A DNA stretch of 27,699 nucleotides from a virus (Duplodnaviria > Heunggongvirae > Uroviricota > Caudoviricetes). The translations under genes were made by a program, and so were the position numbers. Positions 297 to 8,683 of this stretch are shown here, piece after piece. Position 1 is the first letter of the stretch, and each line of letters starts with the position of its first letter. The stretch lies in IMG/VR virus record IMGVR_UViG_2737471821_000004; one strand, written 5' to 3'. The notes under the pieces were generated by a model. That model was not told the DNA's origin. It saw only the letters and a program-made list of their open reading frames with translations, and did no database searches.

Positions 297-1337
297 CTAA
301 GCTGTCGCGACATTTTTGCGACATTTTAAGGGGTTAAGTCGCACGGCATCTTCAAGGTGGCTTGGGGCGAAATGGGCATAACGCATTGTCATAGTGATGT
401 CAGCGTGGCCGAGAATTTTTTGCAGAACCAGAATGTTTCCGCCGTTCATCATAAAGTGGCTGGCAAATGTATGGCGCAGTACATGGGTAAGCTGGCCGGA
501 GGGGAGTTCAATGCCTGCACGTTCCAGAGCAGAGCGGAAAGCGTTGTAGCAGGGCTTGGGGAACAGAGCGCCTTTTGTTTCAGGTAATTCGGACAGAAGT
601 TCATCATCAAGGGGAATTGTTCTGTTGCGCTTCCCTTTGGTTTTGACGAACGTGACTTTACCCCCGGCGATCTGGGAGCTTTTCAGCGTTGCCGCCTCAT
701 TCCACCTTGCGCCGGTAGCAAGGCAGATTTTGACAACTAATTCTAGGTACTTAACTTTACTTCGTTTGCATTCCAGTAAAAGCCGATCAATTTCTTCGGT
801 AGTGAGGAAAGCCATTTCGGTTTCATCAGTACGATACTGTCTGACGTTTTCTAGTGGGTTGGGTGCTGACCATTCACCAATCCGTTTCAGCTCGTTGAAC
901 ATAGCCAGGAAGTAAGCATGTTCAAGGTTCATAGTTTTCGGGGAAACCTTAGATACTCTGTTGGTACGGGCATAATGCCCATCCAGCCTTTTAGCGCGGT
1001 AGGCTGTGAACAACTGGGCATTAAATTCTGTGGCCAGCGGGAATCCCATGCATTCCGCCGCCCAGGTCATAGCATTTTTACGCTTTTCGCCATTGCTCAA
1101 AGCTACGCCGTGGCGTTCATACCACATTGTTATCAGATCTATTAAAGTTCGCTTGTCCTTCCCTTCACCCAGCCACGGAGCTGCGTCTACTTTCTGAAGC
1201 GTATGGTTTTCGAATGCCAGGGCTTCCCCTTTCGTGGCAAATTTTTTACGTATACGCTTCCCGTTCTTGCCATTACTGCGGTTGACGGTGTAGAAGTCGG
1301 CGATCCATTCGCCTGTAGGAAGTTTACGAACGCTCAT
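297..1337 (-). CDS. int: Tyrosine site-specific integrase, P2/186 family
   Basis: 346 aa; N-terminus MSVRKLPTGEWIADFYTVNR...GKRIRKKF matches the remembered 186/P2 integrase N-terminus; C-terminal catalytic region HVLRHTFASH ... MTMRYAHF (R, H-x-x-R, Y); sits directly downstream of cI as in 186. Confidence 0.93.
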   Translation of the reverse strand: MSVRKLPTGEWIADFYTVNRSNGKNGKRIRKKFATKGEALAFENHTLQKVDAAPWLGEGKDKRTLIDLITMWYERHGVALSNGEKRKNAMTWAAECMGFPLATEFNAQLFTAYRAKRLDGHYARTNRVSKVSPKTMNLEHAYFLAMFNELKRIGEWSAPNPLENVRQYRTDETEMAFLTTEEIDRLLLECKRSKVKYLELVVKICLATGARWNEAATLKSSQIAGGKVTFVKTKGKRNRTIPLDDELLSELPETKGALFPKPCYNAFRSALERAGIELPSGQLTHVLRHTFASHFMMNGGNILVLQKILGHADITMTMRYAHFAPSHLEDAVRLNPLKCRKNVATA

Positions 1338-1338
1338 T

Positions 1339-1920
1339 TTATTTTATCGTCAGAACAACGCGGCCTATGATTTTTATGTCGTCAATTCCGCAATCAAATG
1401 CCATACCAACACCGCTAACTCTGACTTTTCGTACCGGAATCCGTGTAAGAGTGCGGACGCTTGTTTTTCCTTCAACTTCAACCAACCAATCATCGTCATA
1501 AACTTCAGAATAAGACTGGTCAACAATGTACTGAACAAGGCCATCCAGAACACAAATCGGTTGTTGCGGTAAGGGCTTACCAGGCAGGAAGATGACTTTA
1601 TCAAGCATAAGTGTGCCAGCGTCATAGAGTTGGCCATCAACAATCTTGCTGCGCGGTATTTTGAGTATGTCTAATTCATCATCATTAAATTTACGTCCCT
1701 GTCCTGTCGCCAGCCACTCCAGATTAGCGCCTGTTTCGGCTACACATTTCACGACAATGTCTGCCGGGAAAACTCCACGCTTGTAGCGTGAAGAAAGAGA
1801 ACTGGCTGCCATGTCCAGATGTTCCGCGAGCTGTAACTTCTGCGTAAATCCGTAAGCCTCGATCACCCTGTCAAGAATCGGTGTGCTATCTACGTTTAGG
1901 TCGATTTTAAATGTGCTCAT
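1339..1920 (-). CDS. cI: CI-type immunity repressor (186 CI-like)
   Basis: ORF track gives 1339..1974; start trimmed to the ATG encoding MSTFKIDLNVDS. Strong resemblance to remembered 186 CI (AYGF.QK.QLA, ETGANL.WL.TG, C-terminal GIDDIK..GRVV). Transcribed towards int. Confidence 0.85.
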   Translation of the reverse strand: MSTFKIDLNVDSTPILDRVIEAYGFTQKLQLAEHLDMAASSLSSRYKRGVFPADIVVKCVAETGANLEWLATGQGRKFNDDELDILKIPRSKIVDGQLYDAGTLMLDKVIFLPGKPLPQQPICVLDGLVQYIVDQSYSEVYDDDWLVEVEGKTSVRTLTRIPVRKVRVSGVGMAFDCGIDDIKIIGRVVLTIK

Positions 1921-4133: not shown

Positions 4134-4984
4134 AAACTCCGCTTAAATGGGTGGGCAGCAAAGCCCGCATTATGCCTATGCTGCGTCCGCACCTTCCAGA
4201 AGGTAAACGCCTGGTTGAACCGTTCGCAGGTTCCTGCGCTGTCATGATGAATACGGATTATGACGAGTATCTGATCGCAGATGTGAATCCTGATCTGGTT
4301 AATCTTTATAAGGCGATGGCGTATCACACTGATGCGCTGCTGAATGAGCTGGAGATCCTGTTTACTGCCGGTTCGTTAGGTGATGAAGAAAGCCGTGCCA
4401 TTTTCTATTACGCAGTGCGTGATGCTTTCAATCTTTCTGGTGGTAAGGCCGGTTCTGAATCTGTTGAAAATGCTGCGCGTTTCCTGTACCTGAATCGCCA
4501 CTGCTTCAATGGCCTGTGCCGGTATAATCGCCGAGGCCAGTTCAACGTCCCGTTCGGTAAGTACAAAAAGCCTTATTTTCCCGCTGATGAAATCCGTGCC
4601 TTTGCTGAAAAAGCGAAACGCGCAACGTTCATTACTGCCCACTATTCAGAAACGCTCGATTTGGTTCGGGACGGGAATGACGTTGTTTACTGTGATCCGC
4701 CTTATCTGACTGAAAGCGACAATTTCACCGCTTACCATGAGCGCGGTTTTTCGCACATGGATCAGGGGAGGCTGGCGCGTAAGTTGCGCCGTCTGGCCAG
4801 AAAAGGTGTGCCGGTTGTGGCCTCTAATGCCGATCTGGAAATGGTGCATTACCTGTACGCCGGATTTGAAGCCGTTCGCATTAATGCCCCACGTAGTGTT
4901 GGTGCCGCAGCTGCAAGCCAGAAAGTTGCCGCAGAGTTAATTCTGAAGTCGCCGCTTGGTTCTATAGCGATGGCCTGCGCATGA
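4124..4984 (+). CDS. dam: DNA adenine methyltransferase (Dam-like, GATC N6-adenine MTase)
   Basis: Track ORF 4103..4984 trimmed to MAIKTPLKWVGSKA. Motifs shared with E. coli Dam: LKW.G.K near the N-terminus, VEPF.G, FLYLNR..FNGLCRYN..G.FNVPFG.YKKPYFP, and catalytic VVYCDPPY. No adjacent restriction endonuclease. Confidence 0.9.
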   Translation: MAIKTPLKWVGSKARIMPMLRPHLPEGKRLVEPFAGSCAVMMNTDYDEYLIADVNPDLVNLYKAMAYHTDALLNELEILFTAGSLGDEESRAIFYYAVRDAFNLSGGKAGSESVENAARFLYLNRHCFNGLCRYNRRGQFNVPFGKYKKPYFPADEIRAFAEKAKRATFITAHYSETLDLVRDGNDVVYCDPPYLTESDNFTAYHERGFSHMDQGRLARKLRRLARKGVPVVASNADLEMVHYLYAGFEAVRINAPRSVGAAAASQKVAAELILKSPLGSIAMACA

Positions 4985-7002
4985 CTCCTGTCGCCAATGG
5001 CCAACATCACGCCGTCGATACCTGGCGGCGTGAAACGTTCGCACCGGGTACACCTACAGACGCCACGCTCACTGAGCGCCGCCTGTGGGCGGTTAACCCG
5101 CAGGATTACGAATGGCGCTCACAGTACCTTCATGAGATACCCGACTGGTTAGCCGGGTATTTTGGCCGTCGTTACGAAAAGCTGTTTGCTGGTCGTGACG
5201 GGCGTCGCCGTGCCAATACATTCCTGCGCCAGACTATCGGCGGGAGTGTATTGCCACGTCTGCGCAAAGTGGCTGCGCGTTACTCGCTGGCCGCTGACGC
5301 TGCTGATCTTCCTTTTGGTAAGTCGCTGGAGCGCTTGCCGTCACTAGACCGTCCTGATCTTAAAAAACTGGCTGGCCAGGTATCTGGTTGGATTTCCCAG
5401 TCACTTTATGACTTCACCGAACAGTTTGACTCTGGCACTGACGACGCCAGAGAGCTGCATCGCCGCACCTTGGAATCATACCGCCATCTTTGCGCGGGTT
5501 GCCTGATGCTGAATAACCAGCCGCCGTACTGGGCTGAACATGAGGCCAATGAAGGTCAACTGGAAATGCGTAAGGCGGAATCCGGGATACTGCGCATGAT
5601 GGCGCCGGAATGGTGGTACCTACGTCTTAAACGTGCGCGTGATATGCAGCGCGAACATATGGCCATCGCGGTGGGACAGGTACAAAAAGCGGCCAGCGCT
5701 TATGTATCCCGCAAAACACTGGACGAATGGATAGACCAGAAAAAGCGGAATCTGGAGTTCTTTAAAAAGTTTGATCTGCTGAATGATGAGGGGCTGCGCA
5801 TTGCACTGGACAGCATGGTGCACCGCAGCGTTGCAAATCCGGCGATCCGTCGATGTGAACTAATGGTAAGAATGCGAGGGTTTGAAGATATGGCCAATGA
5901 AGAAGGGCTGGCCGGTGAGTTTTACACCATCACCGCGCCATCACGTTTCCACGCAGTGCACAGCAAAGGTGGCTTTGTATCGCAATGGGATGGATGTACG
6001 CCGCAGGATACCCAGCGCTATTTATGCGGCGTATGGGCAAAAGCACGCGCAGCGATCTCGCGTGCGGGTATTCATGTATTTGGGTTTCGGGTTGTTGAGC
6101 CTCACCATGACGGGACACCGCACTGGCATATGTTGCTTTTTATGCGTCCGCATGACGTGGACACGGTACGCGATATTCTTTGCTATCACGCCAGAATTAC
6201 CGATTCTGAAGAACTGCAATCTGAAAAGGCGCTGAAGGCGCGTTTTCATGTTGAAGCTATCGATCCCGCCAAAGGTTCGGCCACGGGCTACATCGCGAAA
6301 TACATTTCAAAAAATATTGATGGTTTTGCGCTGGATGGTGAGCATGACGAAGAAACCGGCGAAAACCTGCGTGATATGGCTAAGTCCGTTTCTGCATGGG
6401 CTTCACGCTGGCGTATTCGTCAGTTTCAGCAGATTGGTGGTGCGCCGGTAACTGTCTGGCGTGAGCTGCGTCGGTTGCGGGATCAGGTGCTGACCGATCG
6501 CAGAATGGATGCGGTTCTGGCCGCTGCTGATGTCGGGGACTGGGCTGCATATACCCAGGCGCAGGGCGGTGCACTGGTTGCCCGCCGTGATCTGGTTGTT
6601 CGTCTGGCCTATGAAATTACGGAACAGGGCAACGAGTATGCAGAGGACGTGCAGCGCATACAGGGGGTTTATTCTCCTTTGGTTCCTGATTCAGAAGTTT
6701 GCACCCGTCTGGTTAAGTGGCAAAAGGTTGCGAAGTTGGCCGAAGCGCCAGCGGAGGCGGGTTTTTCTGGCGGCAACGCCGCCCCTTGGAGTTCTGTCAA
6801 TAACTGTACGGAGGGGGGAACCCGCAGACGGTTAAAACTGGAATTACGCAGTCGGGGTTTTGATGGTTCTGATGAAGAAATAGCCATTCTCTTGCGGGGT
6901 AGTGGTTTGAGATTTGGTCAGGGCGCTCTGATTTACCGCAACGGGCGGCTTAAAGAGACTCAAAACGAGCCATTGCAGGAACTGTGGCCGGGGTGGTTAT
7001 AG
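4981..7002 (+). CDS. A: Replication initiation protein A (HUH rolling-circle endonuclease, P2 gpA / 186 A family)
   Basis: 673 aa; HUH-type motif PHWHMLLF and tyrosine motif YIAKYISKNIDG; ATGA overlap with the dam stop; position matches P2/186 gene A. Confidence 0.88.
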   Translation: MTPVANGQHHAVDTWRRETFAPGTPTDATLTERRLWAVNPQDYEWRSQYLHEIPDWLAGYFGRRYEKLFAGRDGRRRANTFLRQTIGGSVLPRLRKVAARYSLAADAADLPFGKSLERLPSLDRPDLKKLAGQVSGWISQSLYDFTEQFDSGTDDARELHRRTLESYRHLCAGCLMLNNQPPYWAEHEANEGQLEMRKAESGILRMMAPEWWYLRLKRARDMQREHMAIAVGQVQKAASAYVSRKTLDEWIDQKKRNLEFFKKFDLLNDEGLRIALDSMVHRSVANPAIRRCELMVRMRGFEDMANEEGLAGEFYTITAPSRFHAVHSKGGFVSQWDGCTPQDTQRYLCGVWAKARAAISRAGIHVFGFRVVEPHHDGTPHWHMLLFMRPHDVDTVRDILCYHARITDSEELQSEKALKARFHVEAIDPAKGSATGYIAKYISKNIDGFALDGEHDEETGENLRDMAKSVSAWASRWRIRQFQQIGGAPVTVWRELRRLRDQVLTDRRMDAVLAAADVGDWAAYTQAQGGALVARRDLVVRLAYEITEQGNEYAEDVQRIQGVYSPLVPDSEVCTRLVKWQKVAKLAEAPAEAGFSGGNAAPWSSVNNCTEGGTRRRLKLELRSRGFDGSDEEIAILLRGSGLRFGQGALIYRNGRLKETQNEPLQELWPGWL

Positions 7003-7079
7003 CGGTGTAATTATGTGAAAGGCATTCATTTGTCAGTAGATGGCAGGAAATTAAATTTCACAATTCGTGCTTTAAGGTG

Positions 7080-7099
7080 TACTGTATGTATATCCAGTT
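7080..7099 (+). promoter_or_regulatory. LexA (SOS) box-like site
   Basis: TACTGTATGTATATCCAGTT matches the E. coli LexA consensus TACTGTATATATATACAGTA at 17 of 20 positions, with CTG and CAG arms at the correct spacing; lies about 25-40 bp upstream of the ATG at 7122. Confidence 0.5.
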
Positions 7100-7121
7100 A
7101 TTTATTGCTTGTGGGGGCTAA

Positions 7122-7328
7122 ATGGATCTTTTGGAGGCGTCGGCACAGCTGGAACGCATTGAGTTATTGGCCAAAATTGCCCATGTTTACGAAAGTAACC
7201 AGAGAGAAAAAACAATCGCTTTGGCCTGGATTGGAGAGCTTGCGGGAGAGGTTCGCGAAATAGTTAAAAAGGAAGGGCAACGCCCCCAGAATGGGGGCAT
7301 TTCAGGCGGCGGGAGTCGCTTTCAGTAG
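7122..7328 (+). CDS. Small hypothetical protein (68 aa) downstream of the SOS box; possible Tum-position antirepressor
   Basis: ATG 7122 with GGGGGC RBS; helical, protein-like sequence; occupies the post-A position where 186 carries LexA-controlled tum. No sequence similarity to Tum or DinI could be confirmed by eye. Confidence 0.4.
   Translation: MDLLEASAQLERIELLAKIAHVYESNQREKTIALAWIGELAGEVREIVKKEGQRPQNGGISGGGSRFQ
7282..7298 (-). terminator. GC-rich hairpin downstream of the ogr-like gene (candidate terminator)
   Basis: GCCCCC-AGAAT-GGGGGC perfect 6-bp stem just after the minus-strand stop at 7302; the T-tract on the minus strand is displaced about 10 nt, so only a weak intrinsic terminator. 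Confidence 0.3.
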
Positions 7329-7571
7329 GTCTAATGCCATCTGGCGCTGATCGGGTGAAAGTGCATTCAGTATTTTTTGCACCATCGCATCACCCGTTTT
7401 AGCGCTGGGGCTGAGAGTGTGGGAGAACGTCAGATTCATAACAAACGTGTGGCCACACTCAACATCTGAACAGGCACAGTAAATATCGGCAATCTGCCGG
7501 TGCTTCCTGTTTGTTTTACGAATAACAGCCTTTGAGCCGCATTCCGGGCATTCGATTTTCAGAACTCGCAT
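7302..7571 (-). CDS. ogr: Ogr/Delta-family zinc-finger late-gene transcription activator
   Basis: Track ORF 7302..7625 trimmed to the ATG encoding MRVLKIECPECGSKA...YCACSDVECGHTF; Cys-x2-Cys ... Cys-x4-Cys spacing and the trailing TF parallel P2 Ogr (HCPLCQHAA...HQCQNVNCSATF). Confidence 0.8.
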   Translation of the reverse strand: MRVLKIECPECGSKAVIRKTNRKHRQIADIYCACSDVECGHTFVMNLTFSHTLSPSAKTGDAMVQKILNALSPDQRQMALDLLKATPAA

Positions 7572-7621
7572 ATTCCATGCTCCAGCTGTTAAATGATGCC
7601 TGGATTTTAGCCTCTTTCGCC

Positions 7622-8683
7622 TCATGCCGCACCCTTATCCGTTGATTCTGTGTAACTTAAATCAAAGTTAAGGTGTAGCCTTTCCGGTATTTCAGGATCG
7701 TTGTTAACGGCCAGCATGAAACGGCGCTGGATGGGGGCAATTTCGCTTTTCTTGTAAATGCGTTCAGCCTTTTCAACATCCCCCAGTCCGGCAGTGTTCT
7801 GCGGGACAATACCGGCGAGGCCGGCAGGGAAACGGTGCGCGTTCAGAATGTCCTGGGCGCTGATGTTTTTGATGTTGGCAAATTCATCCTTCGCGGAAAT
7901 ATCCCCCATTTCAATGAATTTGATGGCGTCGCCGTCTCCACCGGGAATGTTTACAAGGATGGTGGAGAAGTTACCGATCCCTTTGCTGTCACGCAGCTGC
8001 TGTTCAATTTCTTCCTCCATTTCGTCCGTCATGCTGGGATCGCGAGTATAAAGAATACCGCCTGTGTGCGCACCGTTGTGGTAATAGCGGCGTCGGAAAA
8101 TGACCGCTTCACTGTTAAGTAACGCGGAATGCACACCGCCGATGTAGTCCGGCAGTCCGTAGATATGCTGTTGTGGGTCATACATTTTGATGAAGATAAT
8201 ATCTTCTTCTGGCCATACCTGCGGTTCTCCTTCCTGTAACACCACGTAGTCACCGGGCTTATCCAGGGCGTTATCTCTGACTTTGCGGCGGCGAATATAC
8301 AGACCGGGCAAGGGTTCAAGTGCGATCACGTCGCCCCAGCCGTTACGAATTTTGGCAATCGCAATATCCCCAAAGGTTATATAGTCAAACGCTGCCGCTT
8401 CCAGCTGGTCGTGAATAAGCCCGCCCCCCAGGTAGTCTGAAACAATCATGTTTTTGCGGGCGTGAATGATGCCGCCGTGCTGACCGTTAAGATTAATCAG
8501 CTGTGCGAGTGCCAGCCGGTCAATCGGCTGGGTGAAGTGATCGGCGGCATTGTCGTACCAGATATCACGGTAATCTGTGCCGGTAGTCAGAACCGGTTCA
8601 GGTTTGCCGAATGTGATAATGCTCATCTTTTTTGATTTGTCGCCGCGCTGGTCGCGCTTAACAAAGCGTTTCTTTTTACTCAT
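7622..8683 (-). CDS. Q: Capsid portal protein (P2 gpQ-like)
   Basis: 353 aa (P2 gpQ about 344 aa); immediately downstream of and coupled to the large terminase on the same strand, divergent from O-N-M-L as in P2/186. Confidence 0.8.
   Translation of the reverse strand: MSKKKRFVKRDQRGDKSKKMSIITFGKPEPVLTTGTDYRDIWYDNAADHFTQPIDRLALAQLINLNGQHGGIIHARKNMIVSDYLGGGLIHDQLEAAAFDYITFGDIAIAKIRNGWGDVIALEPLPGLYIRRRKVRDNALDKPGDYVVLQEGEPQVWPEEDIIFIKMYDPQQHIYGLPDYIGGVHSALLNSEAVIFRRRYYHNGAHTGGILYTRDPSMTDEMEEEIEQQLRDSKGIGNFSTILVNIPGGDGDAIKFIEMGDISAKDEFANIKNISAQDILNAHRFPAGLAGIVPQNTAGLGDVEKAERIYKKSEIAPIQRRFMLAVNNDPEIPERLHLNFDLSYTESTDKGAA

Follow-up and report, generated by a model that had tools for sequence, protein, structure and literature searches.

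A short tum-like gene behind a predicted LexA operator in a P2-like prophage of the ESSI-2 type

Known short Tum proteins and the locus after gene A

Induction of prophages by DNA damage through small antirepressors under LexA control has been described in several phages. In phage 186, induction relies on the sequestration of the CI repressor by Tum (PMC7708051). The p95 promoter, a LexA site and the tum gene follow the replication gene A in this phage. The equivalent region is described here for the IMG/VR virus record IMGVR_UViG_2737471821_000004, a stretch of 27,699 nucleotides (nt) analysed as a whole and hereafter called the window, which carries a P2-like prophage with a 186-type lysis-lysogeny switch (int, cI, apl and cII). 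Behind its gene A, an open reading frame (ORF) of 68 amino acids (aa) lies downstream of a LexA-like box, and positions 7057-7328 very probably constitute an SOS induction module, in which a LexA operator placed on a p95-like promoter would drive the synthesis of a short Tum reduced to the N-terminal antirepressor domain.

Short tum genes that stand alone are already known. In the Escherichia coli HS prophage DuoHS, the deletion of tum, and likewise a lexA(Ind-) background, abolishes the lysis and virion formation induced by mitomycin C (PMC12055606, Nat Microbiol 2025), the deleted gene corresponding to locus tag ECHS_RS04495 (supplement, PMC12055606). The DuoHS tum gene (62 aa) is located directly after A and is followed by a separate dinI-like gene. 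A split tum has been reported for Fels-2 and PSP3 (Lemire et al., PMC3121763), and in PSP3 the antirepressor activity is encoded by the upstream half (PMC3121763). For this half, tumA (60 aa), the PSP3 record notes a resemblance to the 186 tum 5' end and gives the function 'UV induction of prophage'. Small LexA-repressed antirepressors that bind a non-cleavable phage repressor are also known from the Gifsy prophages (GfoA and GftA) and from N15 (AntC) (PMC3121763). They follow the same logic as that proposed for the window, although the phage backbones differ, and no sequence relationship between these proteins and the window ORF was detected.

The window has the same order of elements as 186 and the same type of switch (CI, Apl and CII). 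The initial annotation had assigned the ORF to the position that tum occupies after A in 186, which is borne out by gene A ending at 7002. The product differs, since 186 Tum has 146 aa with a DinI-like C-terminal half and the window protein has 68 aa without it, and so does the downstream region, where 186 has orf97 and the window instead has a convergent ogr gene. DuoHS and the window have in common a short stand-alone gene after A, a LexA box upstream of it and a 186-type CI; DuoHS differs in the dinI-like gene and the morons that come after tum, and in ogr, which occupies the P2 position after gene D. The antirepressor half of PSP3, tumA, is like the window gene a separate short gene (about 60 aa) after A, preceded by a strong LexA box of 29 bits, but PSP3 retains the DinI-like half as tumB, downstream of tumA, and the window has none. 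The window gene is a new and under-annotated example of these short genes; what is less usual here is the absence of a DinI partner, a swap of a cassette of about 235 base pairs (bp) that tracks the immunity genes, and a tail that runs through the ogr terminator.

The predicted LexA operator and the gene behind it

The features of the region are the following.

4981-7002, plus strand: replication gene A (Pfam Phage_GPA, 6.3e-105), the landmark ahead of the SOS gene, as in 186
7057-7062, plus strand: -35 hexamer TTCACA of the putative SOS promoter (p95 equivalent), the same as the annotated -35 of 186 p95
7080-7085, plus strand: putative -10 hexamer TACTGT, which forms the left arm of the LexA box; the same hexamer is given as the p95 -10 in the 186 record
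7080-7099, no strand: predicted LexA (SOS) box TACTGTATGTATATCCAGTT, 17 of 20 consensus positions, 26-27 bits, the only such site in the window
7113-7117, plus strand: Shine-Dalgarno-like GGGGG, 4 nt ahead of the ATG
7122-7328, plus strand: short tum-like gene, 68 aa, ATG start (ORF listing; phrog_698 3.8e-22, phrog_8554 6.5e-11)
7122-7262, plus strand: conserved helical core (codons 1-47), followed by a poorly constrained tail (codons 48-68)
7282-7298, minus strand: G+C-rich hairpin GCCCCCAGAATGGGGGC, predicted from folding as the stem of the ogr intrinsic terminator, just past the ogr stop and inside the tail of the tum-like ORF
7302-7571, minus strand: ogr-like late-gene activator, 89 aa (Pfam Ogr_Delta 9e-20; ORF listing), with the ATG at 7571 and an ORF open to 7625

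A LexA match at 17 of 20 positions had been pointed out in the initial annotation and was recovered here: TACTGTATGTATATCCAGTT is the only sequence in the window that matches the LexA consensus TACTGTATATATATACAGTA with three mismatches or fewer, and no such match occurred in 100 shuffles preserving the dinucleotide composition. Scoring with a LexA weight matrix, which had been proposed as a check, agrees with this result. The matrix was assembled from 24-25 E. coli LexA boxes known from the literature, and its absolute scores are approximate; the site reaches 26.3-27.1 bits, close to the top of the training sites (13.4-27.5 bits), compared with 13.7-14.3 bits for the second-best site of the window and 20.2 bits for the best site across 200 shuffled windows, which it exceeds by about 6 bits. 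The consensus-mismatch test is independent of this matrix.

The promoter layout reproduces that of 186 p95, which consists of TTCACA, an 18-bp spacer and a TACTGT that doubles as the left arm of the annotated LexA site; in the window the spacer has 17 bp. Most related loci keep the -35 in the form TTCACA or TTTACA, and TACTGT is invariant among the aligned loci. As the LexA box overlaps the -10 hexamer, bound LexA would cover this element and the likely start site, and in silico the locus has the expected arrangement of a promoter overlapped by a LexA operator.

The comparison covered 22 loci, namely the window, 16 related loci drawn from several enterobacterial genera and from phages, 186, PSP3, DuoHS and three distant family members located through protein identity. 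Seven of the comparison loci came from a contig scan and the others from E. coli RefSeq genomes, phage records and contigs encoding family members; besides 186, PSP3 and DuoHS, the hosts and phages represented are E. coli, Salmonella, Citrobacter-like bacteria, Kluyvera, Enterobacter, Pectobacterium, Cronobacter and Yersinia phages. In every one of the 22 the top LexA-like site of the locus (17.8-29 bits) is found directly upstream of the small gene after A, and among the first 17 loci the gap between box and start codon ranges from 14 to 26 nt. The CTG and CAG arms are near-invariant, while the 10-bp spacer and the flanks vary, and a ribosome-binding site of the GGAGG type is retained in most loci. 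Conserved arms around a variable spacer are the phylogenetic footprint that a functional operator leaves.

A second strong LexA-like box (23-25 bits) was observed near int in ESSI2_ev040, two E. coli prophages, ESSI-2 and DuoHS. Its positions in these relatives, by locus, are as follows.

L013, 7371-7390: second LexA-like box
L015, 363-382: second LexA-like box
L016, 170-189: second LexA-like box
L014, 8206-8225: second LexA-like box
L019, 3335-3354: second LexA-like box

In four of these relatives the box is located immediately upstream of int, and in ESSI-2 it lies past the 3' end of int. The box of L015 and L016 falls between int and a moron inserted after cI, which is a pair of DUF4276 and AAA-ATPase genes in L015 and encodes a TPR protein in L016. 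This second box suggests SOS control of int or of the moron in those phages. No second LexA-like box was found near int in the window, where int directly abuts cI.

Regarding the coding potential of the ORF, the initial annotation had credited the start codon with a good ribosome-binding site, and the GGGGG ahead of the ATG is indeed replaced in relatives by GGAGG or GGGAGG at the same distance. The ratio of nonsynonymous to synonymous substitution rates (dN/dS), calculated against five or six relatives, is 0.08-0.17 for codons 1-47 where dS is unsaturated, and 0.5-0.85 for codons 48-68. An alignment of 21 family sequences has 17 invariant columns, every one of them in residues 1-39; the tail varies both in sequence and in length. 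AlphaFold2 predicts a helical hairpin with helices at residues 2-21 and 27-53, the predicted local distance difference test score being 90-97 up to residue 50 and the tail being of low confidence. By these measures of conservation the 68-aa ORF is a real gene. Its last 20 residues probably arise only because the frame happens to stay open through the ogr terminator hairpin and into the 3' end of ogr. The conservation of the DNA of the tail is attributed to the terminator and the ogr 3' end and not to selection on the tail peptide.

Scans of the ORF against Pfam and NCBIfam returned no family, and a sequence search of the PDB returned no structure for the short Tum family or for the Tum N-terminus, DinI alone being matched, by the C-terminal half of Tum. 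Foldseek found no viral structure similar to the AlphaFold2 model at E<=0.001 (E, expectation value), an empty result that is expected because the model is a bare helical hairpin. An alternative ORF at 7015-7263 (82 aa) was considered and rejected as a gene: it spans the promoter and the LexA box, and its protein is not conserved in ESSI2_ev040.

The annotation of this gene is uneven in public records. In DNA identical to the window it is a 'hypothetical protein' (WP_040080381.1) in CP110978 and is unannotated in CP046006. The RefSeq coding sequence of ESSI2_ev040 gp27 (L001, 4177-4437) starts at an ATG within the LexA box, and a GTG about 48 nt downstream, behind GGAGG, agrees with the family alignment. 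In E. coli mip270_05 (L017, 8474-9511) a moron with a DUF2806 domain is placed between the tum-like gene and ogr and the overlap of the two genes is gone; the tum-like protein of this locus has 60 aa and an unrelated tail.

Tum homology, the immunity genes and rival explanations

In the initial annotation similarity to Tum could not be confirmed and the ORF was considered a possibly distinct antirepressor; this reservation no longer holds, as pairwise and profile comparisons and common PHROGs show homology. BLASTP against 186 Tum gives an ungapped alignment of ORF residues 4-41 with Tum residues 5-42 (E 1e-5). When the family alignment was compared by hhalign with an alignment of 186-type Tum N-termini, an E of 3.7e-6 and a probability of 87% were obtained over 40 ungapped columns in the same register, in which residues 4-43 of the window ORF correspond to residues 5-44 of Tum. 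The profile search against Tum and antirepressor families that had been proposed earlier gave matches of the ORF to phrog_698 (3.8e-22), phrog_8554 (6.5e-11) and phrog_1993 (1e-3), and 186 Tum matches phrog_1993 (1e-22), phrog_8554 (1.4e-11) and, through residues 7-44, phrog_698 (2.4e-5). Both proteins also match an intermediate sequence from Yersinia phage YenM_324. The motif that they have in common is approximately L-E-R-[IV]-E-[LM]-[LI]-A-[KR], followed after about 10 residues by [EDK]-[KR]-x-I-A-L-x-[WL]-I-[GA]-E-[LI]-A. On these alignments, the 68-aa ORF is a homologue of the N-terminal 40-45 residues of Tum.

The Pfam DinI domain of Tum covers residues 87-145, so that the homology concerns the N-terminal region outside this domain. 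The window ORF has neither a Pfam DinI nor a phrog_189 match, the latter representing the full-length 186 Tum architecture, and a tblastn search with the C-terminal half of Tum detected no DinI-like coding sequence in the window (best E 0.53). DuoHS Tum and the window ORF both belong to phrog_698 (5.9e-38 and 3.8e-22, respectively) and are matched by BLASTP at 9e-9, with only about 35% identity. The presence of DuoHS tum in the same family provides a family member with genetic evidence for the role proposed here. At NCBI, many proteins of 63-78 aa are named 'Tum protein'.

The immunity genes of the window bear directly on this role and are listed below together with the rest of the switch.

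297-1337, minus strand: integrase
1339-1917, minus strand: 186-type CI immunity repressor (Pfam Phage_CI_repr 6.6e-23 and Phage_CI_C 4.2e-31)
2023-2277: apl/cox-like gene
2308-2811: CII/CP76 gene (Pfam CP76)

The cI ORF is open to 1974, and the start used in relatives is the methionine encoded at 1917. A Pfam scan detected no S24 peptidase or other further domain in CI. The window gene is thus located after gene A, according to the Pfam families and the 186 layout, in a phage whose CI is of the 186 type without a detected S24 domain. Self-cleavage of such a repressor on activated RecA is not expected, and an antirepressor is the expected route of induction.

The comparison with Escherichia phage ESSI2_ev040 points in the same direction. 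The two phages are almost the same in A (99% identity), Ogr (100%), Q (100%), Dam (96%) and CII (95%), and they diverge in the tum core (34-43%), CI (38-45%), Apl (40%) and Int (51%). A DNA alignment delimits the replaced cassette to approximately 7046-7282, which comprises the promoter and the core of the gene, with flanks that are almost identical. In pairwise comparisons among 13 loci, tum core identity rises and falls with CI identity (Mantel r=0.80, p=1e-4), and no such relation is seen with A (r=0.23). In these comparisons the tum cassette changes together with cI/apl.

The way in which the module is expected to operate follows that of 186. In an undamaged cell, host LexA sitting on 7080-7099 would cover the -10 and the likely transcription start and keep the promoter shut. 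Upon DNA damage, active RecA would bring about the self-cleavage of LexA and the promoter would fire, leading to a 68-residue protein whose first 45-50 residues are predicted to fold into a hairpin of two helices, with homology to the N-terminus of 186 Tum. If it acts as Tum does, the protein would bind CI and keep it off its operators, and the removal of CI from the operators would release the lytic promoter. The proposal made at the outset, that of a LexA-repressed small gene in the position of tum coupling induction to DNA damage, is supported by the strength of the site, its occurrence in 22 of 22 loci, purifying selection, a 186-type CI and the homology to Tum.

Several results weigh against this proposal. 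The similarity to 186 Tum is short, 38-40 residues with about 30% identity, and a profile search of 1.84 billion representative proteins (E<=1e-3) gave 78 matches, all of 112 aa or fewer, with no full-length Tum among them. The comparison of PSP3 TumA with the family alignment was non-significant (hhalign E 0.026). A generic sigma-70 scan did not call the promoter at 7057-7085, because the -10 TACTGT is weak; a weak -10 fits with a promoter that is silent until derepressed, but the caveat stands. The Mantel p overstates the evidence, since the loci are phylogenetically non-independent and the swap events are few. In addition, the link between Tum and CI is not one-to-one, as ev040-type Tum proteins that are 98-100% identical are paired with CIs only 45-54% identical. 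The N-terminal helix-turn-helix domains of these CIs (L013, L015 and L016) are 59-71% identical and their C-terminal domains 38-44%. Near-same Tum proteins facing divergent CIs would place the specificity at the level of CI clades and not of individual repressors, and there are hints that the Tum-like core may recognise the CI N-terminal domain or a small conserved patch.

This loose pairing, odd for a highly specific binder, is also what gives some room to the view that the gene is under LexA control and yet encodes another small SOS-induced phage protein, modulating RecA, cell division or superinfection, with induction of the prophage taking a different route. The functional evidence within the subfamily is the DuoHS deletion phenotype, and Pfam, NCBIfam and the PDB are without matches. 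Such a product is nevertheless improbable: the homology of the ORF is with the portion of Tum outside the DinI-like half, induction is lost in DuoHS when its phrog_698 member is deleted, a CI with no detected self-cleavage domain needs some antirepressor, and the cassette changes with cI/apl between flanks that are 99-100% identical.

It could also be argued that the functional product is the transcript itself, an SOS RNA antisense to ogr and to the end of the terminase-portal-ogr operon that would regulate the late genes by interference or pairing, the ORF being secondary. The two genes do converge with a 27-bp overlap, a like arrangement is found in distant relatives (the genes overlap by 30 bp in L024 and are adjacent in L025), and the poor U-tract AUUUCA that follows the hairpin on the plus strand makes read-through plausible. 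This explanation seems very improbable in view of the strong purifying selection on codons 1-47 and of the LexA-controlled ORF being kept without an adjacent ogr in 186, DuoHS, PSP3, Yersinia phage YenM06.16-2, L023 and L017, the last with a moron in between. Retention of the ORF where ogr is not adjacent means that an antisense role cannot be its primary function; moreover, Rfam at a permissive threshold gave no match in 6800-7800 and hence no known RNA family. Finally, the shortness of the ORF, the empty Pfam and NCBIfam searches and its lack of annotation in some RefSeq genomes with identical DNA would be compatible with a chance LexA-like sequence ahead of a spurious ORF, but this is effectively refuted by the shuffling results for both the consensus and the score, the conservation of the box in 22 of 22 loci, a dN/dS well below 1 and the phrog_698 match. 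The SOS induction module with a short Tum is the reading retained in what follows.

Convergence with ogr, phage context and meaning

The initial annotation had described an overlap of 27 bp with the ogr-like gene on the opposite strand, which agrees with the tum-like gene and ogr being convergent and with the ogr-like ORF ending at 7302. The equivalent ESSI2_ev040 gene is annotated as 270 bp. Immediately past the ogr stop, 10 of the 11 loci where ogr abuts the small ORF have a canonical intrinsic terminator on the ogr strand, made of a GCCCCC-loop-GGGGG(C) stem with a T-run behind it; the Pectobacterium locus has a different terminator stem. In the window the T-run on the ogr strand is degenerate (CGTTGCCCTTCCTTTTT), and a terminator scan reported terminator-like sites on the minus strand at 7287-7271. 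Read on the plus strand, the hairpin at 7282-7298 has no more than the AUUUCA tract mentioned above behind it, and it encodes the ...PQNGG... stretch in the tail of the tum-like ORF.

It had also been proposed that SOS-driven transcription would run antisense into ogr. This is a possibility, with the hairpin at 7282-7298 lying in between. Read-through of the SOS transcript may result in antisense or collision control of the late activator Ogr, which would keep late-gene expression down for as long as LexA is inactive. Conversely, partial termination on the plus strand at the hairpin may produce a tum mRNA without a stop codon, which would lead to tmRNA tagging, rapid degradation of the product and a self-limiting pulse of antirepressor. 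It is unlikely that the convergent arrangement is itself regulatory in either of these ways, through interference with Ogr or through a non-stop tum mRNA. To our knowledge, neither has been described for Tum-type modules.

The prophage is of the ESSI-2 / Quadragintavirus type, its closest phage records being the Escherichia phages ESSI2_ev040, ev015 and ev129 (Peduoviridae, Quadragintavirus), Salmonella phage S.Kent 1-2-1 and Cronobacter phage ESSI-2. Among 5,426 complete E. coli genomes, 25 contain the segment 7003-7400, six of them with 100% identity to the window; natural lysogens with identical DNA include E. coli XYEH3934 and 1919D3. Further genes of the window are a DUF2732 gene, one for a Dam methylase and, on the minus strand with ogr downstream of them, the terminase gene P and the portal gene Q. 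In this phage group ogr abuts Q at the end of the P-Q operon, while in P2, 186 and DuoHS it follows gene D. The 19-mer of the P2 cohesive end, GGCGAGGCGGGGAAAGCAC, had no match in the whole window with three mismatches or fewer. A perfect palindrome, CTGTATTGCCGTACAG, was noticed at 2018-2033, in the switch region between cI and apl, and L008 has a near-identical copy; with the LexA matrix its score is only about 9 bits, which makes an operator for CI or Apl more likely.

The current understanding of SOS induction in 186-like phages is left unchanged by these data, and the analysis supplies a name for a gene that is labelled 'hypothetical protein' or is uncalled in RefSeq. From the family alignment, the smallest natural Tum-like unit can be delimited as a predicted two-helix hairpin, and the cassette swap between the window and ESSI2_ev040 constitutes a natural experiment for mapping the specificity between antirepressor and repressor. 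The prediction that emerges is that DNA damage would induce this group of P2-like prophages, found in E. coli at the frequency given above and also in Salmonella, Citrobacter, Enterobacter and Cronobacter, by way of LexA and a minimal antirepressor some 45 residues long.

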